The notes under the pieces are model-generated. The model was not told where the DNA came from, searched no databases, and saw only the letters and a program-made list of their open reading frames with translations. From positions 64,001 through 128,000 of the IMG/VR virus record IMGVR_UViG_3300027858_000004: DNA of 64,000 bases. The stretch is one strand, 5' to 3'. The translations under genes and the position numbers were made by a program. This DNA comes from a virus (taxonomy: Duplodnaviria > Caudoviricetes). Shown in pieces: positions 3,727-60,800 of the stretch (position 1 is the first letter of the stretch; each line of letters begins with the position of its first letter).

Positions 3727-6700
3727 TTGTGTAAATCAACAAGACATGAGTTTCACTCTCATTCACCATTCAGTAACATTAGGTTGCTCGATGCCATATC
3801 AACAATAGAAGACCTGATTCAGAAGTCTGCTGATATGGGATTAAAGGGAATTGCAATCACTGACCATGAGACTGTGGCAGCTCACGTTAAAGCAATTCAA
3901 AAAGTAAGAGAGTTGAAAGAGAAAAAGAAGATACCTCAAGATTTCAAATTAACTCTTGGGAATGAAATCTATCTAGTTAACTCAATGGAAGAGGTTCAAG
4001 ATAACTATGAATCAGGAGTTACTAAGTTTCCACACTTTCTGCTGTTAGCTAAAGATATTGAAGCGCATGAGATGTTACGAGGTCTTTCAAGCCAAGCATG
4101 GAGTCAATCTTTCTATACTGGGGCAATGGAGCGTGTACCAACCACTAAAGCACAGTTAGAAGAGGCTATTAGAAGCAATCCTAATAAGTTGGTTGGTAGC
4201 TCAGCGTGTCTAGGTTCAGAATCAAGTATTCACATTCTAAATGGTGACTTCGACAAAGCAAAAGATTTCCTGAAATGGTGTTCTAATCTATTTGGAAAAG
4301 GAAACTTCTTCTTAGAAATGCAACCAGCAATTGGTGGAGAGCAACGTATCGTCAATGAAAAGTTAATTGAGTTTTCTAATGAACTAGGTATTGACTTAAT
4401 AATTACTTCGGATGTTCACTATTTACGACCTGAAGATGCAGACATACACTCTTCATATCTTAACTCAAAAGGTGGGGAACGAGAAGTAGCAGAGTTCTAC
4501 TCAAACACTTACCTTCATACAAACGAGGAAATATATGAAAAACTAAGCTATATAGATGAATCAATTATTACCAAGGCATTAGAAAACACCCTAAAGATTG
4601 GTGAAATGATTGAAGAATACACTATTGAAGCGGATATAGTTATTCCTAAGATTACATTGCCAGAATTCACTTTAAGACATTTATTTAAAAAAGGTTATAA
4701 ACGATATAATTACATTTATGAAATGGCGCATAGTGAAAATGAACAGGATAGATATTTAATCCACTTAATTGAGGAAGGATTTCTAGAATATATTCCATAC
4801 CAATCAGTTAGTCAAGAGTATTTCCATACTATGATGGCTAGGATTAATATTGAGCTGGAACAACTTTGGGAAATATCCAAGGTACTAAATCAAGCTATGT
4901 CAGCTTATTACGTTACAGTTGCTAAGATTGTTGACCTAATGTGGGGAGATGACTGTGGTGAAGATAGTAAAACAGAAGGCTCATTAGTTGGTAGTGGACG
5001 TGGTAGTGCTGTAGCGTTCTTTATTAACTATCTAACTGGTATCACACAAGTTAATCCATTAGTATACGGGATTGAAGTCCCATACTGGAGACATTTAAGT
5101 AAAGATATGCCTAGCATTAGCGCACTAGATGTAGACGTTGATATCAATGGAACCAAGAAACACTATATCTTTGAGCGAATGAAGAGGTTTTTCGGTGAAG
5201 ATAGGTTCCTACAAGTTTGTACATTTGGTACTGAGGGTTCTAAATCAGCCATTCAAACAGCTTGTCGAGGTCTTGGGTATGATACAGACATAGCACAATA
5301 TATTAGTTCTCTTATTCCTTTTGAAAGAGGGGCAAACTGGAGCATTAAAGATTGTCTATATGGTGATGTAGAGGAAGACAGAAAGCCTGTAAGAGAGTTT
5401 ATTAAAGAAATAGAACAATATCCGAAGTTGAAAGAAACTGCTTTGAAAATTGAAGGTCTAGTTAATAAGCGCTCTGTTCATGCTGGTGGAGTTTTAATTA
5501 TGAATGATTCATATGTGAAAACAAATGCCATGATGAAGTCTCCTAAAGGGGTTATGACCACTCAGTTTAATCTTGATGACTCGCAAGCACTAGGAAATAT
5601 TAAATATGATATTTTAACTATCGAAGCGATGGAGAAAATTCAAACAACAATGGATTTATTACTTAAAGAGAAAGAAATGATTTGGCAAGGGACACTGAGA
5701 AAAACATTCAATAAGTACTTGCATCCAGAGATTATTGATAAAGAGAATCCAAAACTATTCGAAATGGCTAGTAGTGGAACAATTCCAGACCTATTCCAGT
5801 TCTCCACAGCAATTGGTCACAGTACGATTAAGAAAGTACAACCAAAAAATCTAATTGAAATGGTCGCTACCAACTCATTAATGAGACTGCAATCAGAAGG
5901 TATGGAACAGCCTATTGACACTTTCATTCGATTTAAGAATGACATTTCACTTTGGTATGATGAAATGCGTAAGTGGGGATTAGATGAAAATGAAGTTAAA
6001 ATAATGGAAGAACATCTCCTTCCATTAAATGGTGTTGCAGATACACAGGAATCAGTAATGCTAATGGCAATGGATAAGAGGGTCGCAAGTTTTAATGTTA
6101 AGGAATCAACAACCCTACGCAAAAGTATTGCCAAAAAGAATAAAGAGATAGCAATTACAGCTAGAGATATTCTAATGGAAAAAGGTTTTGCGCAAGGAAC
6201 TAGCGAGGCACTACTCGATTACGTTTGGTATCAAATAAGTCGAATGTTATCTTATGCTTTCAGCTCTCCACACACATTGGCATATAGTTTAATTGCTATG
6301 GAACAGCTTAATCTCAATATGAATTACAATCCTTTATACTGGAACACTGCTGTCTTAACAGTTAACTCAGGCTCTCAGGAAGTAGAAGAGGGAGAGAAGA
6401 AGAAAACAACCAAGTACGGTAAGACAGCATCAGCAATAGGTAAAATGAAGAGCTTCGGTGTCAATGTTTCTCTACCTTTAATCAACTCAGCAGGATTTGG
6501 ATTTGAAACTGATATTAAAAACAATAGAATCATATTCAGTTTAAAAGGTATCGTTGGAGTTGGTGATGATGCAGTATACGAAATTATCAACAATAGACCA
6601 TACACTTCATTCGATGATTTCTATGATAGACTTTATTTAACTAAAAAGGTTCAAAAGAAACACATTATTAAACTAGTTAAAGCAGGAGCGTTTGACGAGT

Positions 6701-12580: not shown

Positions 12581-12946
12581 ATGAATAAATTAGAATCCCT
12601 AGAAAAACTTTTGGAAACAATAGAAACAAAGGACAAGCTTGTCACTGGAAACTACTGTAGAGGTGAGAACAATTGCGTCATTGGACATCTCCTTAAGATT
12701 GGGAATGTCTCACAAGAGCAGCTAATCAAAATTGACAAGGGTGTTTACGGACATAGTTATGCAATTGGCACTATCTTGAGAGACGGCAAGCTAGATTTCG
12801 TTAATGATAGTTTGGTATCATTAGGTTTTGCTATTGAGTCGGATATAGATATTTTAGAAGGTTTACAGTTAGTTAATGATTATCAGGGTACTAAAGAGGT
12901 AAAAAAACATCTTAAAGTAATAATTCAAAGACTAAAAGAAGAATAA
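12581..12946 (+). CDS. hypothetical protein
   Basis: ORF with RBS. Confidence 0.7.
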   Translation: MNKLESLEKLLETIETKDKLVTGNYCRGENNCVIGHLLKIGNVSQEQLIKIDKGVYGHSYAIGTILRDGKLDFVNDSLVSLGFAIESDIDILEGLQLVNDYQGTKEVKKHLKVIIQRLKEE

Positions 12947-12970
12947 ACGCAAGAATATCAGGTTTTAACT

Positions 12971-13044
12971 AAAGTTTGTGAAATTCAATTGACGCAATTC
13001 CCTATACAATGGGCATTTCAATTTTGGATTTCACAAACTTTTTT
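12971..13044 (+). ncRNA. long hairpin/terminator with conserved apical motif (copy A)
   Basis: 18-bp stem with one G-U pair, core CCCTATACAATGGG, T-tract. Confidence 0.55.
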
Positions 13045-13091
13045 CATTAAAATTGGGATTTTATTAATTTATAAATATCATAAACTATGTA

Positions 13092-13120
13092 TTGACAAAT
13101 GATGTGAAGTAGTGTAATAT
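13092..13120 (+). promoter_or_regulatory. sigA-type promoter
   Basis: TTGACA-17bp-TAATAT. Confidence 0.7.
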
Positions 13121-13152
13121 AATAATTAGATAAGACGAAGGGAGATGTGGAG

Positions 13153-13320
13153 ATGATTCCTAAAGTAGAAAGAATATATCGGACTAACAATAGTCCAAAG
13201 CATACACAGCAGGAGCTTAAAAACTTAGAGAGAAATATTAAACCCAGAGAAGTGCAAGAATCAAAATTTATAATCATGGAGAGCTATCTAGACAGTTTGA
13301 TTTCAGAAGGAATATGCTAA
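13153..13320 (+). CDS. small hypothetical protein (55 aa, not in ORF track)
   Basis: RBS plus MIPKVERIYRTNN... read by hand. Confidence 0.55.
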   Translation: MIPKVERIYRTNNSPKHTQQELKNLERNIKPREVQESKFIIMESYLDSLISEGIC

Positions 13321-22305: not shown

Positions 22306-23703
22306 ATGACAATTATCACAAAAGACAGAAACTCACATGTTCAAAAGTCGGAGTTTATGTTGGAAAGATTTGAGCGTTTCTTTAATGAAATTATAGAGGA
22401 CTCAGAAAAACAATATGACCAAGACATTCTTAATACAATCAAAGAAAACGTATTGGACTACGTTGAATCAAAAGAAGAGGTTGAAGCAGATAAGCTTTTT
22501 GATTTAATTATCAGAGCATCTAATGACCAAATCTCCGAGAAGAATCCTGATTTCACTTATTTAAGTGCATCAGCATTGCGCAGAAAGATTTATAAACAAG
22601 CATCTAAAAATCGTGGTTTTGATTATAAAAACGGATATGGAGATTACTATTCATTCGTTATCCAGATGGTTGAGCAAGGAATTTATGATGAAGACATTTT
22701 AACTTCCTATACCGAAGCAGAAATTAGAAGAGTAGGTAAATTAATCAACATTGGCAAAGATAAGAAGTTCAGTTATGCAGGATTATTTATGCTTAACAAC
22801 ACTTACTTGAAAAAGGGATACAGAGGAGAAGTATTGGAGCTACCACAAGAGCGCTTCTTAACATCTGCTTTATACTTCATGAAAGACGAGAAGAAAACTA
22901 AGCGTTTTGAGTTTGTTCGTGAAGCTTATTGGGCATTGTCTAATCACTTCATTGGTTTGGCAACCCCTTCATTGTTAAATGCTGGCGCAACTAATGGAAC
23001 ACTCTCATCTTGCCATATTATTACCCCTAATGATGATTTAATGAGCATTATGGAAAGTTTGAAACAGACAGCCAAGTTCTCACAAAATGGAGCTGGAATT
23101 GGAATTTATATGGGATTCTTACGTGCAAGTGGTTCGTGGATTCGTGGATACAAAGGTCGTGCAACTGGGGTTCTACATCCTTCACGCTTAACTAGTACAT
23201 TAGCTGAGTATGTAAATCAACTTGGCGCTAGACCTGCTGGAATAGCTTTGTATTTACCTGTGTGGCATTTAGATGTATTTGACTTCTTAGATTTACGATT
23301 GAAAACTGGGTCACAAGAGAAACGTGCTCACACTATTAAAACTGCTGTAACTGTACCAGATGAGTTTATGCGCAGATTGAAAGCTAAGCAAAACTTCACT
23401 CTCTTTGACCCATATGAATTTAAGAAGAAAATGGGAGTGGACTTGAACCGCTTGTTCGATAAAAAGAAATTGATGGATGGAGAAGAACCCAATAAAGTTG
23501 ACCATGCTTTCACTTACTGGTATCGCAAAGCAGAAGAAGACAAAACATTTGAGCTTAGTCGTGTTGTAAGCACAACTGAGATTTACAAATCAATCTTTGC
23601 ATCACGTAAAACTGGTGGAACACCTTACATGTACTACTCTGACATCTCAGCACGAATGAATCCTAATGAGCACATGGGAATGCCTTTTGGTTCTAATCTG
23701 TGT
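22306..23703 (+). CDS. nrdA: class I ribonucleotide reductase alpha subunit, exon 1
   Basis: ATP..NAG, LSSC, GAGIG; ends at the catalytic SNLC. Confidence 0.92.
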
Positions 23704-24604
23704 TAATTATTAGCACCTTTGAGAAGTGATTCTCATAGCAAACCCATCTAAACAGGGGAACTCTCATGGCATTGAGACAATCCTGTGCTAAATACTCGAT
23801 ATTGACAAATAAATGATATGGATGTGAAAAACAATGATTTATGATGTATATTCAATTACATGCTTAGCAAATGGCAGGGTGTATTTTGGTCGCTCTCAGG
23901 AGATAGGAAAAAGATGGAGAGCACATGTGAACATGCTTAGAAAGTCGGTTCATAACAACTTACTTCTTCAATCTGACTGGAATGAATATGGTGAGCCAAA
24001 CTTTACATTCAAGATAATCCATTCAACAGAATCTCTAGAAGAGTCTGTAGATATTGAGCAATCATACATTGATTCCAGCGCCTATGAAAAATATAACATT
24101 TCTGATGCAAAAGACGGTGGAAATACATTTACAAATAACCCCAGAAGCGAAGTTACTAGAAAGTTAAAAAGCTATAACACCACTGGGGAGAGAAATCCAA
24201 TGTATGGAAAACCGAAATCAGAAAAAATGATAAGTAGAGTTAAAGAGGCAAATTCCAAGCCTGTGGTGGTTGAAGGTGTTCTTTATCCAAGCTCAGTAGA
24301 AGTTAGCAAGGCAACTGGGATAAAAACTACAACAATAAACTACAGATTGCAATCCAAATCTCCAAGATTTAAAGATTGGAATTATGCATAAAAAGCAATA
24401 TCGAGTTAAATGCCAAACGACTATCGAAAGGGTAGCTTACATCGAGAGGATATAAGTGAGAACCGAGTAGAGTACACTCAAGCGAGTGGAAAAGATGGGA
24501 ATCTGTAGTAACGATACAGATTATGATATAGTCTAGCCTCTATAGTGATGTAGAGCAGTCTAGAGACGGTTGTGACATTAGCGATGTTACAGCGAATATA
24601 AGCG
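23704..24604 (+). ncRNA. group I intron in nrdA
   Basis: 5' exon ends in U and intron ends in G; GACTA/TAGTC core pairing; splicing restores SNLC|SEIIQN in frame. Confidence 0.9.
23834..24391 (+). CDS. intron-encoded GIY-YIG homing endonuclease
   Basis: VYSI..VYFGRS..RWRAH, NUMOD3-like GERNPMYGK, C-terminal HTH. Confidence 0.9.
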   Translation: MIYDVYSITCLANGRVYFGRSQEIGKRWRAHVNMLRKSVHNNLLLQSDWNEYGEPNFTFKIIHSTESLEESVDIEQSYIDSSAYEKYNISDAKDGGNTFTNNPRSEVTRKLKSYNTTGERNPMYGKPKSEKMISRVKEANSKPVVVEGVLYPSSVEVSKATGIKTTTINYRLQSKSPRFKDWNYA

Positions 24605-25531
24605 AGTGAGATTATTCAAAATATGGATTATGACCGAGTTGAGTCAGAAGAGTTGGATAAAGAAGGCTTCTTAGTTACTAAGACAAAGGGTGAAGGATTA
24701 GTTACATGTAACTTATCGTCATTGGTATTAAACAACATATTTGGAAAAGGCAATGAACATGTTGACTTGCAAAAGGTTGTTGATATCCAGTTTAGAATGT
24801 TGGATAACGTTATCACACTAAATCGCACAGTTGTTCCACAAGCCACACACACTAATAGACTTTATCGTGCTGTTGGGGCAGGAGCTATGGGGCTAGTTAC
24901 TCTAATGACATCTGAGGGTATTCGCTGGGAGTCTAATGAAGCATCTGAATTCACAGAGAATATTTTTAAGCAATATTTAATGGCTTCAATTAAAGCATCG
25001 TCAAAACTGGCAGAAGAGAAAGGTTCTTATCCTTATTACGAAGGCTCAGATTGGAACACAGGAGCATTCTTTGATAAGCGTGGATTCGTTTCTGATGAGT
25101 GGAATGAGGTTCGTGATTTAGCTTCTAAGGGCATGAGAAATGCTTACTTGATGGCTATTGCTCCGACATCTTCAAACTCAATCATGATGAATAGTAGTCC
25201 AAGTATTGACCCTCCGTATGCTGTTATCTACAGAGAAGAGAAGTCTGGACTTAATGTTATCATTGTTCCTTCTAACTACAATAATCAAACAAAATGGTTT
25301 TATAAGTCTGGTTTTGAAATGGATGAAATGTGGGCAATTAAAGTTGTTGCGGCAGCTCAAAAATACATTGACCAAGCTATCAGCCACAACATGCATGTTT
25401 CCAAGTCTATTAAAGGTTCTGAGCTATTGAGACTGGATATGGGTGTTTGGGAAAACGGCATAAAAACTACTTATTACACATACACAGAAGACTACGTGTT
25501 GGATGATACTTGTGTAATGTGCAGTTCATAA
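24605..25531 (+). CDS. nrdA: ribonucleotide reductase alpha subunit, exon 2
   Basis: CNLSS, GAGAMG, AIAPT, DQAIS, KTTYY, C-terminal CxxC. Confidence 0.92.
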   Translation, partial: SEIIQNMDYDRVESEELDKEGFLVTKTKGEGLVTCNLSSLVLNNIFGKGNEHVDLQKVVDIQFRMLDNVITLNRTVVPQATHTNRLYRAVGAGAMGLVTLMTSEGIRWESNEASEFTENIFKQYLMASIKASSKLAEEKGSYPYYEGSDWNTGAFFDKRGFVSDEWNEVRDLASKGMRNAYLMAIAPTSSNSIMMNSSPSIDPPYAVIYREEKSGLNVIIVPSNYNNQTKWFYKSGFEMDEMWAIKVVAAAQKYIDQAISHNMHVSKSIKGSELLRLDMGVWENGIKTTYYTYTEDYVLDDTCVMCSS

Positions 25532-28281: not shown

Positions 28282-28917
28282 ATGGTAACAGCAATGGCAG
28301 AGGAACTCCCACCAGAAGAAGGTATGGATTTTTCAAACTTAACAAGTGAAAACGTAGCACAACTAATTGAAAAGTATAAGTATTTGGTTCCAATAACAAT
28401 TAGTAAAAGATTTAACGCAGAAGGGCTTTTAAGATATCATGGTCTAGGTAAAGATGATTTGGTGCAGTTTGGAACGATTGGATTGGTTGACGCTATAAAT
28501 AGCTATGACCCAAACAGAGGGGCAAAACTAAAGTCTCATATTATTTCATATATTTATCGCTATATAATACACTACTCACAAAAAGATTCTTTATATAATA
28601 AAAACAACTATAGCTTTGATTTGCTTAGAACTGTTAGCTTAGATGTTGATAATGATGATGAAGAGGACGTATTCTCAAGAGACGCAATAGAATCTGAATA
28701 TCTAAAGGATGATGGCTTCATCAGAAAATCAGAGATAAATATAATGTTCGAGCGACTGGAAGGTATTATACCAGAAAAAGCTATTAGGATTATTGGATTG
28801 CGCTTACAGGGATATACTAATCTTGAGGTATCAGAGATGGAAGGAATTACTCGACAAGCAGTTCAAAGAATGCTGAAAAGAAACAAGATGTATATTTTAA
28901 ATGCTATAAATGAATAA
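28282..28917 (+). CDS. phage sigma-70 family RNA polymerase sigma factor
   Basis: region 2 DLVQFGTIGLVDAINSYDPNRG; region 4 HTH. Confidence 0.85.
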   Translation: MVTAMAEELPPEEGMDFSNLTSENVAQLIEKYKYLVPITISKRFNAEGLLRYHGLGKDDLVQFGTIGLVDAINSYDPNRGAKLKSHIISYIYRYIIHYSQKDSLYNKNNYSFDLLRTVSLDVDNDDEEDVFSRDAIESEYLKDDGFIRKSEINIMFERLEGIIPEKAIRIIGLRLQGYTNLEVSEMEGITRQAVQRMLKRNKMYILNAINE

Positions 28918-28965: not shown

Positions 28966-29487
28966 ATGAATAAGGTAGATGAAATGTTTATTGAGGATTT
29001 AGAAGAAATTCTTAAGCAAGATTGGGAAGTAGACAATAGGGCTAAGTGGCTTGATGGTACACAGACAAAGACAAAACGTATTATTCAATCAGTAAATAGA
29101 TATGACTTGTCAGAAGGGTTTCCAATCTTTAATCTTCGTGAAATTAATTGGAAACTTCCTATCGATGAAATTATTTGGATAATGATTAAACAGTCTAATA
29201 ACATTAAAGATTTGAATAGTAAGATATGGAACTCTTGGGCAAATGAAAATGGCGATATTGAAAAAGCATATGGCTATCAAATTGCAAAGCCTACTATGGG
29301 GCATCCATCTCAGATGCACTATGTAATAAATGAGATTAAAACAAATCCAACAAGCAGACGTATTATGATAAATATGTTCTCAGCAGAAGAGCAATTAACT
29401 AAAGCTACTGAATCATTGGTTGAGTGTGCATATGCAATCCACTTAAGCGTAAAGAATGGAAAGCTTGATATGACTCTGATTCAGCGT
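28966..29487 (+). CDS. thyA: thymidylate synthase, exon 1
   Basis: IWNSWA, AYGYQ, NPTSRRI, catalytic Cys; ends IQR. Confidence 0.9.
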
Positions 29488-30748
29488 TAACTTTGAGCGC
29501 CTATAAGAAGTAATTCTTATAGCAAACCTGCCTAAACGGGGAAACTCTCAACTTGAGACAATCCCGTACTAAATCTGTGAGAGGATTTACAAAGGAGCAT
29601 TGTTAATTTGTACTATTTATACACAATCACAAATAAAAAAACGAACAAGAAATATCTTGGTATGACCTCGAATCCACACCAGCGAGAAAGCAGACATTTT
29701 AGCGATTTAAGAGGAAATAGGCATCATTGTGCATATTTGCAAAGGTCGTTCAATAAACATGGTGAAGAAAACTTTGTGTTTGAAATAATTTTCGAGAATA
29801 TGACGGAAGAAAAAGCATCTAGAATAGAAGAAATGTATCTAGTCAATCACTATGACAATTTATACAATACCTCTAAAAAATCAGGAGGTGGAGATTTAAT
29901 AAGCTACCATCCAGAGATAGATAGAATCAAAGAGCAACATAGCATTGCTGGTTTAATTTGGTGGAAAACCAAAAGCGAAGAAGAGAAGAAGGAATTTGGC
30001 GATAAATTTAGAGGTGAAAAGAATGCGATGTATGGAAGAACACACGCTCCAGAAGCACGAGAAAAAATATCAAGTGCACATAAAGGAAGAAAAATATCAG
30101 AAGAGCGAAAGAAGACTATTTCAGAAGCCCAAAGAGAAAGATTTTCTGTTTTAGGGGAGCGAGAAAAAGTTTCGGAAAGAAACAGGAAAAGGTATGAAGA
30201 CCCTGAAGAAAGAAATAAAACATCTTTAGCTAATAAGAAAAGATTTGAGAACCCAGAAGAAAGAGAAACCATTCGGAAAGCTTCTCGCAAGAGAAATCAA
30301 AAAGACTATAAAGTTTTCTTTCCCGATGGAGATACAATGGAATTTACAAACTTAATCGATATCATTGAATACTTTATGGAAAATCATTCGATAGGTAGGT
30401 GGACAATAAATAGTTTGCTTAAAACAGGTCAGACATGGAATCCTTTTTATGAGAAACATAAATATTTAACTGGGTTAAAGATAACCGTAAATGAAAATAA
30501 GAGTAAAAATTAATAAATCCTCTCACAGTAAATGTCGAACGACTATCCCATCGGTGGTGAAATTCCACATTAGGAGTAGGGCACAAGTTAACGGTGTGGG
30601 CGAAAACCCCTTAAATCGAAACGGTAGGTATCCTCTATAAGAGAATAGAAGGATAGTGATATAGTCTAATCTCATAGGCGACTATGAGCGGTTTATTCAA
30701 GCAGAGAATAAACGGTATAAGTGTTACGAGCTTATATGAATATAAATG
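29488..30748 (+). ncRNA. group I intron in thyA
   Basis: P1 GCGU/GCGC, terminal G, core similar to the nrdA intron; splicing restores QR|SGD. Confidence 0.9.
29608..30513 (+). CDS. intron-encoded GIY-YIG homing endonuclease with NUMOD3-like repeats
   Basis: LYTI..KYLG, GEKNAMYGRTH, repeated R.E.PEER. Confidence 0.9.
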   Translation: MYYLYTITNKKTNKKYLGMTSNPHQRESRHFSDLRGNRHHCAYLQRSFNKHGEENFVFEIIFENMTEEKASRIEEMYLVNHYDNLYNTSKKSGGGDLISYHPEIDRIKEQHSIAGLIWWKTKSEEEKKEFGDKFRGEKNAMYGRTHAPEAREKISSAHKGRKISEERKKTISEAQRERFSVLGEREKVSERNRKRYEDPEERNKTSLANKKRFENPEERETIRKASRKRNQKDYKVFFPDGDTMEFTNLIDIIEYFMENHSIGRWTINSLLKTGQTWNPFYEKHKYLTGLKITVNENKSKN

Positions 30749-31069
30749 TCAGGAGATTTCTTAACTGCTGCTGGAGCTGGTGGATGGAATGTGGTTCAGT
30801 ATGCATTCTTACAACATGCAATTGCTAAAGAGTGTGGATTGGAGGCTGGTATTTTACTTCATGTGGTACAAGACTTACATCTATACAATAAACACACAGA
30901 GCAAGCAGCAGAATTAATTAAAAGATATGCCGAAGATACAGGTGAGCTGAATACAAAAGTACAGATTAAAATTTCAGATAAACCATTCTTTGAGCTAACG
31001 GCTGATGATGTTGAGTTAATTGGGTACGAGCCAAAAGGTAAGATTGATAAACTGGATGTTGCTATATAG
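30749..31069 (+). CDS. thyA: thymidylate synthase, exon 2
   Basis: SGD..N..QY, DLHLYNKH, C-terminal VAI. Confidence 0.9.
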   Translation, partial: SGDFLTAAGAGGWNVVQYAFLQHAIAKECGLEAGILLHVVQDLHLYNKHTEQAAELIKRYAEDTGELNTKVQIKISDKPFFELTADDVELIGYEPKGKIDKLDVAI

Positions 31070-32520: not shown

Positions 32521-32578
32521 GACGACAAATAATCCTATTAAATGGGCAATACTGTCGTCCCTTTTAATTACAAAAGGG
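32521..32578 (+). ncRNA. hairpin with conserved apical motif (copy B) followed by a CCCTTTT/AAAAGGG hairpin
   Basis: GACGACA/TGTCGTC stem, core TCCTATTAAATGGG. Confidence 0.5.
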
Positions 32579-32681
32579 AATAAAATGGAGATTTTACTGA
32601 TATGTATACAAAACTGTATACTTGTAAACTTGTGTACAAAATTGTATACATTAATCAGAAAATACAAGGGGAGAGATTAAT

Positions 32682-40920: not shown

Positions 40921-40953
40921 GTGTTTAAGATGCTAAAAGACATTGAAAGTGTA

Positions 40954-45805: not shown

Positions 45806-47560
45806 TTAGATTACTTTATCAGCAGTAACTATAATATCAAATTCTCCTGAAGTCGGAGGAGTTACCCCTAATTGAGTTGCTAATCTTATATAAAAAGTTA
45901 ATTCTTCGCCATCCTCTAGTGTCTGTGCATATAGCAGCTCATCCAATGACTCAAACGATATTTCATTTGTACCAAATCTTGCAGACATACCAACGGGGAA
46001 ATTAGCTTGGTTTGCACGAATAAGAATATTATTTACAGGATAACCATATGTGTTACGCAATATGATTGCTTGTTCAACAGTAGTCTGTCCTGCAATAATA
46101 ATACCGAAATCAAGATTTTGTAGAATCTCACCAACATCAGTAGAGTAATATTTACCAGTTGAATCCAAGAACATTAATCCATTATAAGTACCAACAAAAT
46201 TAGTTTGCCAATAGTCTGTTGCACCCCAATAATCTTGAAATTCAATTCGCAACACATTGTTTTCATCAATTTTTATCTCATCATTGGATAGTGTTAATGC
46301 TACATCTAATGGTGCAGCTTGCAATGGTGTAAAATCACCTGATTGTGGGAAATATGGATTACCGTTTAACAATACTCTATATTGAACTTTACCTGAGTCG
46401 GCATCATCCACTGAGCCTGTAATTGTCTTTCCAGCAAATGTTACGTTGATTGTCGAAGTAGTATTAAGAATATATAACTTAGCATCAGAAACCTTAGTGC
46501 TATACTTAGGTGCTAAATCTGCATAAGAAATCTTATCAACAATTGAAGTTGATTTTCCTCGAATGTCATCGTCCAAATAAACACCCACATATAGATTATC
46601 ATGTGACCAAGAAGTCCATTGAGGCTCTTGCATGTTAAGAATCGTTTTATATGTCATACCTTTTGTTAATATGTTGCTATTAACTGAAGCATCAACGGAA
46701 ACGAAACTCGTACCATCCCACGTATACCATGCGGTTTTATTAGGGGAGATAAGATATCTAGTGTTATTTTTAACATCGTTATTAATACCTTCTGAAACCA
46801 TCAGGTCACTCAAGTTACCATAAATTCCTGCTGGATTTTTAAGGTGTACGAATTGAGGAACTGGTATGGCAGATAAACCTAATCCTTTACCTTGTACTGT
46901 CACATCAATCCCATTAGCTACATTTCCTGTAGGTACGTAAGTTAGCAATTTAACATCAGGATTTATTAATAGCAATTCAGACCACGCTTCAGACTTAATT
47001 AACGATAAATCATCATGCCCATATGTTTCGAAGTCTGATTTGGAAGGGGGAGAAGCTATAGTTTTCCATCCAGCGTTGTAATATCTAGTTGTTCCATTTA
47101 ATGAAATCAGAGTTTTATTTACTGGCAAGCCAAATACCCCATTGAAGTCAATATCAACAGCATCAAAAAGGTATATTTTATCTACTGTTTGAGGATAGAT
47201 TTTCACTTCATGGTATTCATCTGCTAAGTTTATTTTTTCGAATAGAAGAGCTTGATGTGTAGCTGTACTATATATTTGAGTAAAATTACTTTTAATTCCA
47301 TCAATCTCTATAGCTACAGAATTATCGAAAGCTGTATTACTTGTACTTGAACCTATTATTCTAATTTTTGTTCCTTTAAAGTAAAACTTCATGAAATTTA
47401 AGTTTCCTACAACACCCTTACCTCTCATAGCTCTACTGCCAAAGTAACCGATGTAACTGTTTTCCTCCCATAAACCAGAGTAAGAGAAATTAACATTGGT
47501 ATCATCGTATCTTTTCCACCCTACTTCTGGGGTAATTAAAGCTTGATTTAAAGTTGCCAT
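45806..47560 (-). CDS. tail-associated protein with carbohydrate-binding-like N-terminus
   Basis: PE.GWKRYDD motif, position in tail module. Confidence 0.65.
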   Translation of the reverse strand: MATLNQALITPEVGWKRYDDTNVNFSYSGLWEENSYIGYFGSRAMRGKGVVGNLNFMKFYFKGTKIRIIGSSTSNTAFDNSVAIEIDGIKSNFTQIYSTATHQALLFEKINLADEYHEVKIYPQTVDKIYLFDAVDIDFNGVFGLPVNKTLISLNGTTRYYNAGWKTIASPPSKSDFETYGHDDLSLIKSEAWSELLLINPDVKLLTYVPTGNVANGIDVTVQGKGLGLSAIPVPQFVHLKNPAGIYGNLSDLMVSEGINNDVKNNTRYLISPNKTAWYTWDGTSFVSVDASVNSNILTKGMTYKTILNMQEPQWTSWSHDNLYVGVYLDDDIRGKSTSIVDKISYADLAPKYSTKVSDAKLYILNTTSTINVTFAGKTITGSVDDADSGKVQYRVLLNGNPYFPQSGDFTPLQAAPLDVALTLSNDEIKIDENNVLRIEFQDYWGATDYWQTNFVGTYNGLMFLDSTGKYYSTDVGEILQNLDFGIIIAGQTTVEQAIILRNTYGYPVNNILIRANQANFPVGMSARFGTNEISFESLDELLYAQTLEDGEELTFYIRLATQLGVTPPTSGEFDIIVTADKVI

Positions 47561-47606
47561 AAATCTTCATCTCCTTTGCATTGTATTGCAAATTTCTATT
47601 TTCAAT

Positions 47607-47656
47607 AAAAAAGAGATGTCCTAAAACTCCCATTTTACAGGGATTCTAGACATCTC
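47607..47656 (-). ncRNA. hairpin/terminator with conserved apical motif (copy C)
   Basis: GAGATGTC/GACATCTC stem, core CCCTGTAAAATGGG on the minus strand, T-tract. Confidence 0.55.
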
Positions 47657-47691
47657 AAATATCAGTAAAATAACTATTTTATCTTGTTACT

Positions 47692-48921
47692 TTATTTAAC
47701 TTTTACTACATTTTCTAAATTCAATGGAGTAGCGTAAACTGTTCCATCTTGAACAACATCTGTAGATAATTGAGGTGTACTCTTCTGTACCACTTCGTCA
47801 ATAGCATTACTCCAAGTCACAACTTCAAAGTCTTCATCTAATTCATCCAATGGAGAATAGTTTGCAGTAATCTCTAAATCAGCTTTAGTCTTAGCTGTAT
47901 CATCTGTGTAGTATAAGACTTCCATAGTATCACCAAATTCATCATAGATAGAATAAGGTTCAACTTCTGTTTCTACTTTAGATTCAACTTGTGAAGGATT
48001 ATCAGTGTACTCTAATACTTTAACCTCTTTGCCTTTAAATTCATCTGCTAGAGTAAATGGAGTAGTTTCTATGTTGAATTGTGCTTCTGATTTAGGTTGA
48101 AAGTCAGACCATAGCGTTAATTCAACACTTCCTGTTAATCCACTCCAAGCTGATTCTGGAATAGACGAAATATCTTCCATACCTTTTGTTTTGTAATCCA
48201 ATTCAGTTACAGTAGCTCCAATAGTTTGCCATGATGTTGTGTAGTATTTATATACACCACCATGAAGAATCAATGCTTTGTCTGAAATAACTGATATTAC
48301 ATTATTGTATATTTCCAATTCATCTATTTGAAAATTAAAATAAGAATCATTGTGAACTACTCTTCTGCCAATCTCAAAATTATCAGATGCAATTCCCTCT
48401 GGTCTTAGTAGAGTGGACTCAGTAATTTGATTTCTTAAATCATCAATATACAGTTTAACTATATTTGAAGAATCGAAGGTTATTAATATATCATGCCATT
48501 GATTATCGCAAACATTAACTGTTCCAAAATTAATATCTAATATAGCCCCACTGGTGTCTGTTAAGTATAAAAATGGAATTCCACTAGTGTGACGAACCCC
48601 TAGTCTTATTCCATTAAATCCAACCCCTCTTGTATTACCGAAAATCATTCTGTGAGTGTTTAATGGTGGGGTTGGCGATTTTACTCTTAATCTTATGCTT
48701 TTATTACCTATTGGTATAGCGATAGAACTATTGAAGGTTACAAAGTCGTCTACTCCATCAAAACTCAAAGCACTACCCTTACCATCCCATCCTATTACTC
48801 TAGTTGCTCCTGTAATAGTACCAACAGCAGTTCCTTTGGAATCTGTTGCATTACCACTAGTTTCGTTAAACTTAAACCACCCAGTACCATAACTATTCAT
48901 ATTATCTATCATATTAGCCAT
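47692..48921 (-). CDS. LamG/concanavalin-like lectin domain protein
   Basis: WFKFNETSG, ALSFDG.DD, DNQWH, IDELEIYN. Confidence 0.8.
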   Translation of the reverse strand: MANMIDNMNSYGTGWFKFNETSGNATDSKGTAVGTITGATRVIGWDGKGSALSFDGVDDFVTFNSSIAIPIGNKSIRLRVKSPTPPLNTHRMIFGNTRGVGFNGIRLGVRHTSGIPFLYLTDTSGAILDINFGTVNVCDNQWHDILITFDSSNIVKLYIDDLRNQITESTLLRPEGIASDNFEIGRRVVHNDSYFNFQIDELEIYNNVISVISDKALILHGGVYKYYTTSWQTIGATVTELDYKTKGMEDISSIPESAWSGLTGSVELTLWSDFQPKSEAQFNIETTPFTLADEFKGKEVKVLEYTDNPSQVESKVETEVEPYSIYDEFGDTMEVLYYTDDTAKTKADLEITANYSPLDELDEDFEVVTWSNAIDEVVQKSTPQLSTDVVQDGTVYATPLNLENVVKVK

Positions 48922-48953
48922 AAATCCATCTCCTTTCTTTCAAAATAAAGTTC

Positions 48954-50189
48954 CTATTTTATCGCAACCTTTTTAATTGGCACTTGCGAAATATCAATTG
49001 ATTTCTTGAATACTTTACCACTACCTAATGTAGTTGGTGATTGTTCGATAAATGCTATAGTTCCAATTTCAGATGTAACATCTAATTCAAGTGGTTTATC
49101 CATGCCATGATTGATAAAGCTTTGTTCTGATTGGGATGATATTGTAGTTAATTTTGAAGATATACTTTCATACATTTCTATTTCTGCAATTCTTAAATAA
49201 GTTCCACCTTTTACATCAGACACATCTAATTTGTAGCTTGTAAAAGAATTATTGTATTTATAATCAACAATAAATTCATTGGGACTACCATACACCCATC
49301 CAGTAGTTACATTACTTCTAACATCTAGGTCAGTCCAATTTATACCATCGTTTGAACCACGCAAAATCCAATCTGTTGGAGACCAAGTAGCAGGGTTTTG
49401 AACTGGGAATATTGAATACTTTTTAATTTTCTTCCCTACTGGAAAAGTATAAGAAATGAATCCTGTTTTTAAATATTTACCTTCTATCCATACATCAGTT
49501 TTATTTCCATTAAAAGCTTTCCATGCTTCATTTCCACTCAACTCATTACTGGCACTAGCTATACCAGAAGGTGAATTATTGCTTGTCATAACAGGTATTA
49601 AATTATCTGTATACCCACCTTTTTTAATACTTAACGCTTCTCCATTTGAAGATGAAATCAAGATTTTATTGAATCCTTCATATAATCTAAACCCTTGAGG
49701 AATATTATATTTAAATGGGGTTGCACCAAAATTAGCGGTTGCTTTACCAATAGCACCTCCACTAGTTATTGAAGGAAAAACTTTACCCATAGTTTTAATA
49801 TCAGAAAAGGCAATACCTTGACTAATCCCATTTTTATAGAATTCTAATTTGCCATTATCTAAATCTAAAGCTACACCAATAACATCTCCAACTGTATATG
49901 TAGCACCATATGTTGAAGTAGGATAATATCTGTTGCCATTTTGAGAATAATAATATCTTGAATTTAAGGTATCAAAAGTTCTCGAATCAAGTCCTGCATC
50001 TTTATTTATTATTCCTATTAAAAAATACCCACCAGAGACAATATTTATCTCCCAATACCATTTACCACTTTCTCTGCCAATTGTAGTCCTTGCTGTAGTT
50101 GTATTTGATGATATTTCGGTTGTCAGATTCCCATTTGACAACACTACGTTTACCCCTTTATTGATAGCATCCCATGTAACCAATGTCAT
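48954..50189 (-). CDS. SPRY + discoidin (F5/8-type C) domain protein
   Basis: GKWYWE, GDVIGVALDLDNG, NFG..PF; IPVMTSN..WKAF..P.DW..GSNDG. Confidence 0.8.
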   Translation of the reverse strand: MTLVTWDAINKGVNVVLSNGNLTTEISSNTTTARTTIGRESGKWYWEINIVSGGYFLIGIINKDAGLDSRTFDTLNSRYYYSQNGNRYYPTSTYGATYTVGDVIGVALDLDNGKLEFYKNGISQGIAFSDIKTMGKVFPSITSGGAIGKATANFGATPFKYNIPQGFRLYEGFNKILISSSNGEALSIKKGGYTDNLIPVMTSNNSPSGIASASNELSGNEAWKAFNGNKTDVWIEGKYLKTGFISYTFPVGKKIKKYSIFPVQNPATWSPTDWILRGSNDGINWTDLDVRSNVTTGWVYGSPNEFIVDYKYNNSFTSYKLDVSDVKGGTYLRIAEIEMYESISSKLTTISSQSEQSFINHGMDKPLELDVTSEIGTIAFIEQSPTTLGSGKVFKKSIDISQVPIKKVAIK

Positions 50190-50228
50190 TCTCTCACTCT
50201 CCTATCTTTATAAAACTAAATAAAATAC

Positions 50229-51503
50229 TCACTTTAATGAGATTTTCTTTAATACTTTATTAACATCTAATGTATGTTCAAATACTTTTCCAGTTCCTAA
50301 TATAGTAGATGTATCTTGAATGTAATGTTTTTCTGTGAAGTCCACATACATATCTACAGATGCTAAGTCTGATTGAGACATTCCATGATTGAGAAATGCT
50401 TGTTCTGATTGAGATGGGATTTTGATGATTGTATTAATATTTTCGTACATCTCTAATTCCTGTATTGCTAAATAACTTGCGTCCCCACTATTTACTGTCA
50501 CATTAATTCTGTATTTTAAATAGTTTTTATTATTTCTAAATACGAAAGTTTTCTTTACATTATCAGACCACCCTGTAATTCCTACCTGTGTGTCTAATAT
50601 TTCCCATAAAGATGTAGTACTATTCCATCCCTCGAATGTCCAGTTTTTAGGACTTCTCAATAGGTATCCCACTTGTGGATAAATGGAATAAGAAAGTATG
50701 GATTTAGGTGATGGAAAATCATATTGTAACCATCCACTAGTAACTCCATTAGTAGACCATGCATTTACCGAAACTGCTATATTTCCATCAAAAGCCTTAA
50801 AAACTGGTGTCGTAGAATAAAAACTACTTGCACTAGCTGTCCCATTGGGTAAAATGTTAGATGTCATAATAGGAATTAAATTGTTTGAGTATCTAATGGG
50901 TATCTTTCTAAATTCATTATTTCCAGACGAAAGTAGGATTTTATTTACAATGCCATCATCATTATATGAAAGATAACCACTTGGAATTGGATATGCAAAA
51001 GGTGTCGCTCCAAAATTAAATGTTAAAGTTAGTGTATTTATGTTGCCACTTTTAAAAAAAGGAAACACTTCACCTAAAACACTTAAATCAGTATGTGAAA
51101 CACCCATGCTAATACCGTTTTTGTAAAACTCTAATTTTCCATTGTCTAAATCTACACCTACACCAATAATATTACCAACAACTACAGATGTTCCATATGT
51201 TGTGTTTTCTGGAAATTTATTACCACTATTACCTTGATATAACCTTAGATTTTGTGAATCGCCACTTACTCCACTAAAACCTGTAGCTGTAATTGGGTAT
51301 AGTTTATTTGCAATACCAATAAAGAACGTGGTTGCTCCACTATCAAATTTTACCTCCCAATACCATTTACCCTTCGTTTTACCATGTGTTGCACGAATAT
51401 TACCACTAGTACTTACTGTAGAAGTTAATGTTAAATTTCCATTGGTTAGTGCTATTGCTCCATTCATATCACTTGAATTGAGGGTTACAAGTTGTTTACC
51501 CAT
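50229..51503 (-). CDS. SPRY + discoidin domain protein
   Basis: same architecture as 48954..50189; ATG 51503 after AAGGAG. Confidence 0.8.
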   Translation of the reverse strand: MGKQLVTLNSSDMNGAIALTNGNLTLTSTVSTSGNIRATHGKTKGKWYWEVKFDSGATTFFIGIANKLYPITATGFSGVSGDSQNLRLYQGNSGNKFPENTTYGTSVVVGNIIGVGVDLDNGKLEFYKNGISMGVSHTDLSVLGEVFPFFKSGNINTLTLTFNFGATPFAYPIPSGYLSYNDDGIVNKILLSSGNNEFRKIPIRYSNNLIPIMTSNILPNGTASASSFYSTTPVFKAFDGNIAVSVNAWSTNGVTSGWLQYDFPSPKSILSYSIYPQVGYLLRSPKNWTFEGWNSTTSLWEILDTQVGITGWSDNVKKTFVFRNNKNYLKYRINVTVNSGDASYLAIQELEMYENINTIIKIPSQSEQAFLNHGMSQSDLASVDMYVDFTEKHYIQDTSTILGTGKVFEHTLDVNKVLKKISLK

Positions 51504-51557
51504 AAATCCATCTCCTTCCTTTATGAAACTAAATAAAGTTCCCATTTTATTTCCATT

Positions 51558-51586
51558 AAAAAAGAAGTAGCCATATAGACTACTTC
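51558..51586 (-). terminator. intrinsic terminator
   Basis: GAAGTAG/CTACTTC stem plus T-tract. Confidence 0.7.
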
Positions 51587-52944
51587 ACTTCTAGTTTTCT
51601 TAAATCAAATATCTTCTTCAAATCTACTGATGATTTGTATACTTTACCTGCACCTAATACTTCACTAGTCATACCTTTTGGACTTTCTAATACCTTTTGA
51701 ACTTTACGGTCAAAGATAGATAAGTCATCCATACCTTCTGTTTGGAATTGAGGTAAAGTTGGAAGAGTAGGTGATACTGTTTTGAATGATGGAGGTATTG
51801 CAGGAGTTGGAGTTTCGAACATTGATAGTTCTCCTATCGCTAAATATGAACCACCGTTATGCAATGACACGTTTATTCTATAGTATAAATATGTTTTTAC
51901 ATTATTAATATCAAATGTCTTAGTTTGAGAAAGTATCCATCCTGTAATATTCGATTGTGTATCTAAAACATCAAATAAAATTCCGTCATTTGAACCTTCG
52001 AATGTCCAAGACTTAGGATACATGGTTTCTGTTCCTGCTATTGTAGAGCTAGAAACTGAATATTTTACAATCTTTTTAGGTAATGTAAATTGATACATTA
52101 GCCAACCAACAATACCTACTGGTTGCCAAATCGTATCATAACTACCATCAAACGCTTTATACATGCCATATAGCTCACTACGCTCCGTTGAAGCTGTTAC
52201 AGTTCCACTAGGGGTAGTTTTACTTGTCATCACTGGTATTGCACTATTGGTGATTGCAGGACTTCCTTGACTCAACTTCTTATACCCATCACTCAATAAA
52301 ATGAACGATTTATTTAGTAGTGTGAATAGAGATTCTATTTCTAAAACTGGTCTGAAAGCTCTAGTTGCGTCTGACGTTACCACATTACTAGACGAGGTGC
52401 TTGTTGAACCTCTAATAATTCGTTTTGTAGAATCTGTTGAAAGTGTCGTACTTGTCCATGAATATATTCCAAAGTTCCATACATTATTATCTCCTGCTGT
52501 AATCGTTCCACCAAGAGTAGAGCCAACAATATATTTATCCCATTCATTATCTTTGTCTGTTGAAACTGTTCCACCTGTTAATAGGCGAGTAGCAAATGTA
52601 TGTTTCAATCCTGTACCATCACTAATTTCGGGTAACATATTTGGTAGTCCACTACCACTTGCGATTCCACGACTATTCAGAACATCCAAACTTAAACTGT
52701 GTTGGATATTTCTGTCAGCTAAAAGTATCTTCTTACCATTCCAATCTTCAACCATAATGAATCTGAAATATCCATTAGGAGTGGCACTTGATGCTACTGG
52801 AATCACAGGAATTGCTTCTGCATCAGTCTTAGTTGCTATATCTGAAAATACACCAACTGTGTTAGCTGTTGCAACTGTATATTTACACCAAAAGTAATCT
52901 CCAACTTTTAGTTTAGATAGATTATTATTTAAAGTTAAAGCCAT
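51580..52944 (-). CDS. C-type-lectin-like N-domain + discoidin domain protein
   Basis: GDY..C.Y, ADR, NEWDKYIV, AFRPVLE; IPVMTS..PKSWTFEGSNDG. Confidence 0.75.
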   Translation of the reverse strand: MALTLNNNLSKLKVGDYFWCKYTVATANTVGVFSDIATKTDAEAIPVIPVASSATPNGYFRFIMVEDWNGKKILLADRNIQHSLSLDVLNSRGIASGSGLPNMLPEISDGTGLKHTFATRLLTGGTVSTDKDNEWDKYIVGSTLGGTITAGDNNVWNFGIYSWTSTTLSTDSTKRIIRGSTSTSSSNVVTSDATRAFRPVLEIESLFTLLNKSFILLSDGYKKLSQGSPAITNSAIPVMTSKTTPSGTVTASTERSELYGMYKAFDGSYDTIWQPVGIVGWLMYQFTLPKKIVKYSVSSSTIAGTETMYPKSWTFEGSNDGILFDVLDTQSNITGWILSQTKTFDINNVKTYLYYRINVSLHNGGSYLAIGELSMFETPTPAIPPSFKTVSPTLPTLPQFQTEGMDDLSIFDRKVQKVLESPKGMTSEVLGAGKVYKSSVDLKKIFDLRKLEVK

Positions 52945-57855: not shown

Positions 57856-60800
57856 CTAATTTAAGTTGATTGCAGTACCCTTAATTGTTACTCCTGATGA
57901 GCTTAGTTCAATGTAGTTGTTGGCATCAACTTCTATTCTAACTACTTTACCCTTAGTGCGAATATCATGTGGTGTTTCTAGTAAAATTGAATCTTTAATA
58001 GAATCGTTCATGGCAATTTTTCTAGTGTTACCATCAATTCCTTTATACTCAAAAGAAAAAGTATCTCCTGTTTTATATAAGAATCCTTTATCATTTCCAT
58101 TTGCATCTCCAGCGCCCCATGTTGAATGAGGGTAAGAAGATTCTCCTGTTCCTTTTAAAGTTAATTCAAACTTGGTTCTTGCTGTATTGTCTGCGAATCC
58201 AGTATTTAACTGAATAAAATTATCTTTAATGAAAACATGGTCTTGGGGAACATTTGAGTTTAGGGTTCTTAATTTATTTACGGTTAAGTCAGAGATATAG
58301 CTACCAGTAACTTCATCAAGTATTGCTTCATCAAAGTCTTCATTTAGAACTATTAGTCTTCTAGCATAAAGCATTCCATCTGTTCCTAGCCACATTCTGT
58401 TTTCACCATTCACATCGATTGCAATACCTTCATTAGCGTTCAATCTAATCTGTTCGCCTTTATTACCGTTAATTGTAATACCTGTATTTTGGTCGAGTAT
58501 TATTTTTTCTCCTAATTCTCCATTTACAATTTTCAAGTTGTGTGTGACTAAATCTTGCGCATATAAGCTGCCATCTGTGTCTACTTTAAATTTATTAACA
58601 CAATCCACATCTATTGCAAAACCTCTATTTTTTGTCATGTAAATTAAAGAGTTATTAGTTCCTTTTAATATTGTTCCAAAATCAGTAGAAGGGGAGCACA
58701 TTGGGACTGAACCATATGGAATGTAACCTAACCACATTACAGGATTTGCACCATCAGATACAGTTCCCTTATTTCCTTCAAATTTGAAATATCCATCATC
58801 GTCAATTGCAGTTAAGTTCTTGGCTGTGAAATCTTCTACCCAGAATTCTCCATCTAAATTGGCATACATTTTCTTAACCCATTCAGAGCCAACTTTTTTC
58901 TCAATCATAAATCCATCGCAAGAAGTTGCGTGTACTCTATGTCTCCCATTATCAAGAAGCATTCCAAAGCATTCGCCTTTAGGGTCATCTGTAACTAGCC
59001 CCAATCTCATTTGCTCTTTTCCAGCTCTATCATAGATAGTTGTGCGAGAGCCACGAGTAATCCAAACTCCACTTGCATCCTCAATAGCAAGATTAACTCC
59101 AGAAATTATTTTTCCGTAAATTCTTTCCCCAACTATTCCTTCAGAAGTGATTGCATGTTTCCAAGAATTTCCTGAATCATTAGTTATTGCTAACATACCA
59201 TTTTGAATTACTAACCAAGTGTTCGGGTCTTCTAATGAACGCACAATAATTCCACGCTCGCTCATTTCAATTTGTTGCTCATAACCAGCAATCACTGAGT
59301 TTTTAATGGCATCCCACTTATTGTTGATTATATCGTTTATCATGCCATTGTTCTCTTCAGCTAAGTTCCATTTGTATTTATCCATATTAACAACTGTGGA
59401 TGTGTTCCCAGCATTATATAATAAATCCATCAGTTTTTTAGCATTATCTTTAATTTCTTTTTCATTGGCAATAGTTAAAGATATCTCTTTTGACTCAAAG
59501 CTGTAATTGATTTCAATTATCTTTGCCTGTATGTCAATATCCATTCTATTGTGTTTACCAACTACTGTGTCTCCTAGTACCAATTTACCCCAATCATTTT
59601 GTGCTTCAACAATTGATAAAAAATTAATAATATTCAACGTCATAGAAATTTTAGGCTCTCTAAATTCTTTGAATACTTCGTATCCTTCGTCCAATAAGTC
59701 CTGCTCATCTACAATTGCATCATTAGTGTATTCTTTCTCTATGATGAAATCATTTAATTCTAACAGTTGACTAGGCGATAGATTGTTTTCTGTTGCTACT
59801 AAGCTGTTTAGGATTGAAATTTGATTAATGATATTTCTTTCTTGAGCATCCAAACTAGAAATGAATATCATTTTAGCGTCTATTTCTTTATTTTTTTCAT
59901 TCATTCTTAATATGACTGCTTGATGTGCAGGAGTTCCATCTAGGAACTGAGAGTTTAAGATATCTCTCTCATCAAGAATTTTTACTAGCTCTGTTTGCAA
60001 GACACTCAACTTTTGCTCTTCCTGTTGAATTTCATCTTGTTTTAGGGTTAGATTTTTAGTTAGGGTGTCAAACTCACCTTGTTTAGAACTTAGAAGAGCT
60101 TTATAATTTTCTAAGGCAATACACAATTCATTGCTCATATAATCAGACTCGCTGGTTACTGTTCCATTTTTATCACGCTTAAAAGGGAACATATAATACG
60201 AAAAATCCTCAATATAATTAGAGCCAGTTGCAGAAAGATTCCTAATTGTCAATCCATCTTTACCATAAAGCTTTAAGCGTGTAATGGTTTCATTGGAATC
60301 CGAGCTAACAGTCATGCTATCAAGATATTTTCCTTTTTTAAATCTTAAGCCTTTGTTTGTTCCAACATTTTCTGGGCGATAGAAGTTAATTTTTAAATTG
60401 ACCGTATCCCATTTAATAACAGCATTGAACTTTTCAGCTAATTCATAGGTTGCTTGCAATGCAGTCTGCGAAGCTATTTCATGACTTCGATATTTTAAAT
60501 CGAAAGCAGAGTCAACATATCCAACTTTCCACTTTGAAAATTTCAAAATATCATTCATCATATATGAAAGATTCTTACTTTCTACAGACCATGCTCGAAT
60601 ATTTTTATCTGCAAGCTGTGTTCCTAATGAGAGGGCTTTATACTCAACATATTCATCATTTGAAACACCCTTACTTCTCTCATTAAACTGAAAATACTCA
60701 ATAGTACTTCCATATATTAATTTAAACAAATATCTATGTTTAATGTCCTTGATATTGGGATTGGTAATTGGAACCCTATCTTTTTCTATCATTGTTGGAA

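Follow-up and report, generated by a model that had tools for sequence, protein, structure and literature searches.

Three hairpins of a large phage genome, designated A, B and C, carry similar 14-base tips on mutually unrelated stems, and they are read here, with a confidence slightly short of even, as boundary terminators lying on or beside junctions of the form TAAAA-N6-TTTTA (N6 sites) and not as a separate RNA family. The observation is genuine, yet small in extent: all members of the family come from a single genome, the statistics turn marginal once a fair null model is applied, and anatomically the hairpins correspond to terminators. A new RNA motif has only thin evidence in its favor, and the N6 junction motif, established as strongly non-random and common to SPbeta-like phages including SPBc2, represents the more notable by-product, being genetically testable in SPBc2.

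The window, i.e., the whole stretch of 64,000 nucleotides analyzed, corresponds to bases 64001-128000 of a 166,074-bp virus record featuring direct terminal repeats (33.1% G+C). Its plus strand carries replication and nucleotide-metabolism genes, and its minus strand, from approximately position 40950 onwards, lysis, tail-fibre and tail genes. The PolC-like DNA polymerase (1319 aa) shares approximately 51% identity with YorL of SPbeta-group phages, and the genome furthermore encodes a MrpR homologue, two further Phage_integrase-domain proteins, a large serine recombinase and a sigma-like protein. Judged by this gene content and the YorL-like polymerase, the virus is a distant SPbeta-like temperate phage from a metagenome. 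Searches with single proteins identified no close relatives in viral_contigs, and megablast against phages likewise revealed no close relative. The best relatives compared reach 65% (a 6.4-kb contig) and 58% DNA polymerase identity; proteins with 70-75% polymerase identity exist, and comparison at the DNA level covered relatives only up to 65%. A homologue of YonO was not detected in the genome by tblastn. Since the genome has no YonO-type polymerase, late transcription could rely on a 211-aa sigma-like factor (28282-28917) with a Sigma70 region 2 and an HTH domain. The genes for the ribonucleotide reductase large subunit (22306-25531) and thymidylate synthase (28966-31069) are each split in an intron-like manner around a GIY-YIG endonuclease gene (23834-24391 and 29608-30513, respectively); a group I intron was not reported by Rfam at gathering scores in the window.

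The hairpins and the elements next to them are compiled in Table 1. As claimed in the preliminary description, hairpin A encloses the 14-base core (13000-13013) between the arms AAAGTTTGTGAAATTCAA (12971-12988) and TTGGATTTCACAAACTTT (13024-13041), with six T next. Its stem, described as 18 bp, does comprise 18 pairs, 17 of which are Watson-Crick pairs and one is T.G. The same core was also recovered, as had been stated, in two other hairpins with unrelated stems, namely B (32533-32546) and C (47642-47629 on the minus strand; arms GAGATGTC.../...GACATCTC), and the orientation with local transcription was confirmed, all three hairpins reading in the sense of the flanking ORFs, which end at 12946 (A), 32506 (B) and 47692 (C).

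Table 1. Hairpins A, B and C and neighbouring elements (positions counted from the first base of the window).
Feature	Position	Strand	Description
Hairpin A	12971..13041	+	18-pair outer stem, then TTGA/TCAA and AAT/ATT pairs; apical CCC/GGG clamp; octaloop TATACAAT
Core motif, copy A	13000..13013	+	CCCTATACAATGGG
13-codon frame at A	13009..13050	+	MGISILDFTNFFH and stop; opens at the core ATG, stops at the TAA beginning the N6 site
Six-T run at A	13039..13044	+	first three T are the last stem bases; CATT next
Perfect N6 site at A	13048..13063	.	TAAAATTGGGATTTTA; starts 48 nt after the start of core A
Sigma-A-type promoter-like site	13092..13120	+	TTGACA, 17 nt, TAATAT; precedes small gene 13147-13320
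Hairpin B	32521..32559	+	7-pair stem GACGACA/TGTCGTC, large internal loop, apical TCC/GGG clamp; CCTTTTAATT next
Core motif, copy B	32533..32546	+	TCCTATTAAATGGG
13-codon frame at B	32542..32583	+	MGNTVVPFNYKRE and stop; stops at the TAA of the N6 site
Second small hairpin	32558..32579	+	TCCCTTTT-AATTAC-AAAAGGGA; directly 3' of hairpin B
Perfect N6 site at B	32581..32596	.	TAAAATGGAGATTTTA; starts 48 nt after the start of core B
Six-T run at C	47607..47612	-	directly 3' of stem C
Hairpin C	47613..47656	-	about 17 pairs, two one-base bulges; apical CCC/GGG clamp; octaloop TGTAAAAT
Perfect N6 site over core C	47622..47637	.	minus strand TAAAATGGGAGTTTTA
Core motif, copy C	47629..47642	-	CCCTGTAAAATGGG
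Perfect N6 site upstream of C	47666..47681	.	follows the stop of gene 47692-48921; 9 nt ahead of stem C

Hairpin A sits between the replication-gene operon and the TTGACA-17-TAATAT site. Hairpin B precedes a TGTATAC-repeat region, in which four TGTATAC-type palindromes (32602-32651) separate the N6 site from the gene beginning at 32683; they look like an operator array. A 27-codon frame behind GGAGA crosses these palindromes and ends in ATGA with the next gene (read by eye). For comparison, the SPBc2 promoters bearing the MrpR-bound motif SPBRE contain ATATGTATA, and a MrpR homologue is present in this phage. Hairpin C represents the sole long junction among five consecutive paralogous tail-fibre-like genes on the minus strand (45806-52944), which have PHROG 10080, 17517, 10667 and 24906 in common.

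The predicted folds are stable, with -29.1 kcal/mol for A (z -6.35), -18.9 kcal/mol for B (z -2.86) and -23.4 kcal/mol for C (z -3.05), values that were equalled by 0, 1 and 0 of 200 shuffles, respectively. In each case, the sense strand folds better than the antisense strand (-26.5 versus -22.1 kcal/mol for A, -11.9 versus -10.4 for B and -20.0 versus -15.6 for C), because the G.U pair of each stem would be an A.C mismatch on the opposite strand; the resulting advantage amounts to 4.4, 1.5 and 4.4 kcal/mol. A stable sense stem-loop just 3' of a stop codon is thus present at A, B and C. A and C combine a long stem with six T, and B is weak in this respect, being followed only by CCTTTTAATT (four T after CC). 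The terminator interpretation offered in the preliminary description therefore holds for the anatomy of A and C and for the strand preference, and less well for B. A simple consensus terminator scan called none of the three, because its rule needs five unbroken pairs beside the loop, where only three to four are present here.

Regarding the junction motif, 22 N6 sites were counted in the genome versus 4, 1, 3 and 3 for the same arms at spacings N4, N5, N7 and N8, and with one mismatch allowed, 95 versus 47-58 for the other spacers. In 93 related loci, 392 occurrences at N6 compare with 13-54 at other spacings. Most sites lie behind a stop codon and ahead of the Shine-Dalgarno sequence that follows it, and for 8 of the 18 sites in the SPBc2 region 90000-134416, the first bases are the stop codon annotated for the preceding gene. 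Seven of the 22 sites fall within the window (2996, 13048, 19382, 32581, 35491, 47622 and 47666). A description of TAAAA-N6-TTTTA was not found in the searched portions of the SPbeta papers PMC10516654, PMC8270828 and bioRxiv 10.1101/2021.11.22.469490; the 1999 genome paper may mention it. In SPBc2, yonN and yonK are separated by 1.7 kb lacking annotated genes (59153-60833); this stretch is G+C-richer than its surroundings and, following the available part of PMC5467207, lies upstream of the reported YonO start site.

Each hairpin had been proposed to start 1-8 nt after an N6 site. This was borne out only loosely by C, with a site 9 nt before the stem; upstream of A and B, no site with up to two mismatches was found, their perfect sites lying downstream at 13048 and 32581. 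The tips themselves relate to the motif to different degrees: the loop and 3' clamp of C form a perfect site (0 mismatches), the tip of A shows two mismatches, and at the tip of B no site with up to two mismatches is present, 5 of 10 arm bases agreeing (hand count). Furthermore, A and B each possess a perfect N6 site exactly 48 nt from the core start, with the spacers TTGGGA and TGGAGA; a TGGRR spacer occurs in only 3 of the 22 N6 sites, those of A, B and C (TGGGAG). In the downstream direction, A and B agree in register at 51 of 112 positions (versus 35.3 ± 4.5; none of 2000 shuffles attained this value), with most of the agreement falling in the core and the N6 site; nothing of the kind is seen for the pairs A-C and B-C. 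Upstream identities between the copies (17, 17 and 19 of 45) are not significant. The purine-spacer N6 sites shared by A and B at +48 point to something more than plain terminators.

N6 sites built into or next to terminators are also found in related phages. At the yorZ end of SPBc2, an N6 site lies inside a terminator (ataagagga-TAAAATAT-tccttttat), the related locus L045 provides a second case (aaaaccga-TAAAATG-ttggtttt), and between yorD and yorE the order is annotated stem-loop, N6 site, promoter.

From the sequence, we infer termination at A, B and C as well as an N6 origin of the tip. A and C would act as Rho-independent terminators or attenuators, a stable stem being followed by six U, and B would be a weaker version of the same device, so that the three hairpins would mark transcription-unit boundaries right after gene ends. 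In the tip, an A/U-rich octaloop would top a clamp of three C.G pairs (U.G in B), and its AAAAT would be the left arm of an N6 site; the N6 spacer would be the sole place for G, hence GGG, and CCC would be the upstream complement of this spacer GGG, completing the clamp. Such an origin accounts fully for C, partly for A and poorly for B, and it leaves the shared 5'-side CCCT-R-T and the +48 purine-spacer sites unaccounted for. Given this partial fit and the unexplained elements, the boundary-terminator reading is held to be nearly, but not quite, an even proposition.

Promoter functions were considered and rejected. A promoter within the loop (TACAAT/TAAAAT, then GGG) would have its -35-like hexamers at distances of 10, 14 and 15 nt upstream (hand count). 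The promoter-coupled terminator geometry, as laid out in the available text of bioRxiv 10.64898/2026.08.19.745784, does not apply, as no -10 element follows right after the T runs. For a phage RNA polymerase promoter, the YonO homologue is missing from the genome, and the YonO promoter is undefined in the available part of PMC5467207.

The consensus YCCTRTWMAATGGG has exactly three matches in the window, which are also the only three in the whole 166,074-bp genome, and each of them forms a hairpin apex 3' of a gene end on the sense strand. With one mismatch there are no further genomic matches, and with two there are 17. Ten of the 14 tip positions are identical in the three copies, the other four offer two-base choices, and ATGGG is invariant; other terminator-like hairpins of the genome lack the shared tip. 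The numbers of exact and near matches, the common sense orientation and the lack of the tip elsewhere are what would be expected if the tip, CCC-URUWMAAU-GGG, were bound by a phage or host protein or by a pairing RNA, the hairpins serving as terminators or processing sites whose read-through or RNA stability would be regulated at three unit boundaries. Conservation of the tip on unrelated stems also favors this alternative, which we nevertheless regard as unlikely. Neither the gene annotations nor the Pfam scans provided a candidate binding protein, and the copies are limited to three in a single genome.

Only three pairs are common to A, B and C, and further copies were searched for with a sequence profile and a mismatch-plus-stem scan. 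The consensus had no match in 93 related loci (1,773,191 bases), the mismatch-plus-stem scan found no exact consensus in 1,866,208 bases of related loci, and 46 whole related phage records (~5.7 Mb) contained no true copy. Nine of these 46 records yielded one match each, in all cases TCCTGTTCAATGGG within a conserved reading frame (...INPVQWGFFSL...), which is best explained as a coding coincidence. The profile built from the three 30-mers recovered the three copies at E-values of 0.004, 0.005 and 0.08, followed only by the TCCTGTTCAATGGG coding sites at E >1. Neither the additional copies nor the covariation that had been anticipated in relatives emerged within this range, but as the nearest relatives compared share only 58-65% polymerase identity, this test is weak. 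Rfam reported no match in the window at gathering scores, in agreement with the earlier remark that the hairpin was not recognized as a named RNA family; with E-values up to 5, only mir-2059 appeared over hairpin A (26.3 bits versus a gathering score of 90), representing a meaningless match to a miRNA precursor. With three copies only, no Rfam family and marginal significance under a structure-keeping null model (see below), the apex could not be upheld as a protein-recognized RNA family.

Scanning the collection with the 21-mer common to A and C resulted in 16 loci, one of them a singleton in an unrelated 238-kb record without a polymerase match and the rest belonging to one giant-virus repeat family. 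Since the reversed control pattern gave as many independent matches (three versus two), the likeness to giant viruses was treated as coincidence. In the giant-virus contigs concerned (L005-L019 of viral_contigs), a repeated element of ~130 nt ends in a long hairpin with the apex GCCC-TRTAAAAT-GGGC and is preceded by an ORF with a terminal part weakly similar to Fanzor 1 (PDB 9cf0, E 0.0037). Pfam returned no match for this ORF and Rfam none for the element, which could be a guide-RNA scaffold. Its terminal hairpin resembles those described here in its long A/T-rich stem and in an apex matching copy C in 20 of 21 bases; however, it was found by a match-forcing pattern, and this phage has no TnpB/Fanzor-type domain according to the Pfam scans. 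The core combined with an N6 site at the A/B spacing was found at no fewer than 109 loci (at least 109), none of them with the full core, the best showing two mismatches in the eight upstream bases.

That the shared core exceeds chance expectation could be sustained in part. The initial shuffle test was circular, as it used a consensus derived from A, B and C themselves. For an unbiased test, 206 intergenic hairpins were listed without reference to the motif and every triple of tips was scored; a subset comprised the 70 hairpins with at least three G-C pairs. By plain uncentred identity, the trio scores 23 (12 + 11, hand count), a value reached or exceeded in 200 of 200 shuffles. By information-weighted uncentred scoring, it achieves 47.6 bits versus a null maximum of 46.8 ± 1.4 for the 206 hairpins, the null 95th percentile of the 70-hairpin subset being 47.5, and the uncentred tests of the trio are not significant. 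When the tips were centred on the apex, the trio ranked first among all triples of the 206 hairpins, with P = 0.0075 (206 hairpins) and 0.0025 (70 hairpins) in mononucleotide shuffles, which speaks for recognition of the loop by a factor. Shuffles keeping the paired columns gave P = 0.205 and 0.0875, respectively, which speaks against it, and a second, G-rich triple scores 47.5 in the same apex-centred test. Taken alone, the tip similarity is suggestive, weakly beyond chance and not compelling.

Two further structures came to light among the hairpins. The top-scoring hairpin family in the unbiased identity test consists of early promoters (L128:954-982, 1956-1991 and 5952-5976) with TTGACA / TGCTATAAT, whose -10 region lies inside a palindrome of 10-12 pairs. 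A composite hairpin at genome position 134764-134838 (L132:8764-8838), located between the tape-measure gene and a tyrosine-recombinase-like gene, has a 19-pair outer stem enclosing CCCTCTAATA-N3-TATTAGAGGG.

The uncentred scores, the paired-column null model and the second G-rich triple are all in line with pure coincidence, i.e., three unrelated hairpins agreeing in a G-C clamp and an A/T-rich loop. This explanation is likewise considered improbable, though not strongly so: A and B are additionally tied, independently of the tip, to N6 sites that have purine-rich spacers and lie at +48 in both, and no exact true copy arose in the ~5.7 Mb of related records.

In a more elaborate version, the tip would be a recognition module, and a phage factor, or a ribosome at the loop AUG of a 13-codon frame terminating in the following N6 site, would switch the three boundary terminators between stop and read-through during infection. 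We consider this rather unlikely; if true, the phage lineage would possess a small set of regulated terminators of its own, coupled to the clade-wide TAAAA-N6-TTTTA junctions. A lineage-specific regulated terminator as such has a modest chance. If the tip were truly recognized, it would provide a compact handle on transcription timing across unit boundaries in a large temperate Bacillota phage, a matter that is poorly known for SPbeta-like phages.

Action at the DNA level, with the tip or a cruciform bound by a DNA-binding protein or recombinase (an attC-like element, an operator or a site of a tyrosine-recombinase-like protein), is very doubtful. Core sites of tyrosine recombinases consist of arms plus a 6-bp spacer, a shape shared by the N6 sites, and the phage encodes the MrpR homologue, two other Phage_integrase-domain proteins and the large serine recombinase mentioned above; none of the recombinase genes adjoins A, B or C, however, and sense-strand RNA is favored by the G.U pairs. 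A resemblance to the motif is seen in CCCTATAAATAACTA, the attP core of phage H2 (Table 2 of PMC8270828). Of the 46 related records, however, 2 contained an H2-type core (one mismatch), which does not exceed the control level, and the one site inspected lies outside a hairpin. Known SPbeta repressor sites are promoter motifs of different sequence. The attC-like element suggested in the preliminary description was rejected on anatomical grounds, as conservation resides in the tip here but in the base in attC.

Translation from the loop is the least probable of these alternatives and hardly to be expected. The label "ORF-less" given to the hairpin A region needs qualification, as the core ATG of A and B, part of the invariant ATGGG, opens a 13-codon frame running through the 3' arm and the T run; a ribosome loaded there could keep the terminator open, or the product could be a micropeptide. 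The frames MGISILDFTNFFH and MGNTVVPFNYKRE are equal in length, and in both the stop codon coincides with the opening TAA of a perfect N6 site, recalling the stop-codon overlap of the 8 of 18 SPBc2 sites, but their ending on the N6 TAA is the same fact as the 48-nt spacing, and equal length would occur by chance in approximately 1 in 25-40 cases (own estimate). Bacillota as a rule need a Shine-Dalgarno sequence; because none precedes any of the three ATGs and the frame of C extends over 43 codons, enters the tail-fibre gene in a different register and ends at no N6 site, translation was rated low.

Several known systems invite comparison. The boxB element of the lambda nut sites has a 5-nt loop on a 5-pair stem, is located downstream of promoters and needs boxA and the N protein. 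Its small G-C stem and A-rich loop, read as RNA by a protein, are reminiscent of the tips, and the boxB sequence resembles copy C; the tips described here, however, are 8-nt loops on three pairs at gene ends, neither boxA nor an N-like protein was seen at A, B or C or, for the latter, among the annotations, and the hairpins are not regarded as boxB elements. Integron attC sites combine a conserved base (R/L boxes) and extrahelical bases with a variable tip. Like the present elements, they are hairpin folds at cassette ends that show little sequence conservation overall, but in A, B and C the tip is conserved and the stem bases are unrelated; the Phage_integrase-domain proteins are encoded elsewhere in the genome and not next to the sites, and neither a cassette array nor, at the level of domain annotation, IntI was found. 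The promoter-early stem-loops (PeSL) of T4-type phages, in which an early promoter and a conserved stem-loop occur at the borders of mobile cassettes, many per genome, share with the present hairpins the repetition of regulatory stem-loops at gene-cassette borders of a large phage, the difference being that only three copies with unrelated stems exist here. The SPBRE is a 15-bp promoter-region motif bound by MrpR, and the genes listed for it in PMC10516654 include yorE, yorZ and yosX. The SPBc2 promoters of these three genes share TAGACAAA..ATATGTATA, which is unlike the tip motif, and the tips are not classed as SPBRE.

The boundary-terminator reading places A, B and C closest to the intrinsic terminators of Bacillota and their phages, which they resemble as sense stem-loops right after a stop codon, with a T run in A and C. 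Their stems are unusually long and interrupted (approximately 28 pairs in A), and B is without a good T run. Annotated SPBc2 stem-loops likewise set a G-C clamp close to the tip against an A/T-rich genomic background. A further counterpart is the stem-loop at the yorZ end of SPBc2 (AF020713, stem_loop 116406-116431). It differs in its clamp, which is GAGGA/TCCTT and not CCC/GGG, and it lacks CCCT-R-T; at the tips of A and B, the N6 arms are degenerate or absent. It carries, however, the N6 left arm TAAAA in its loop, its spacer and right arm pair with an upstream complement, and T-rich bases follow next, and copy C represents exactly such a design.
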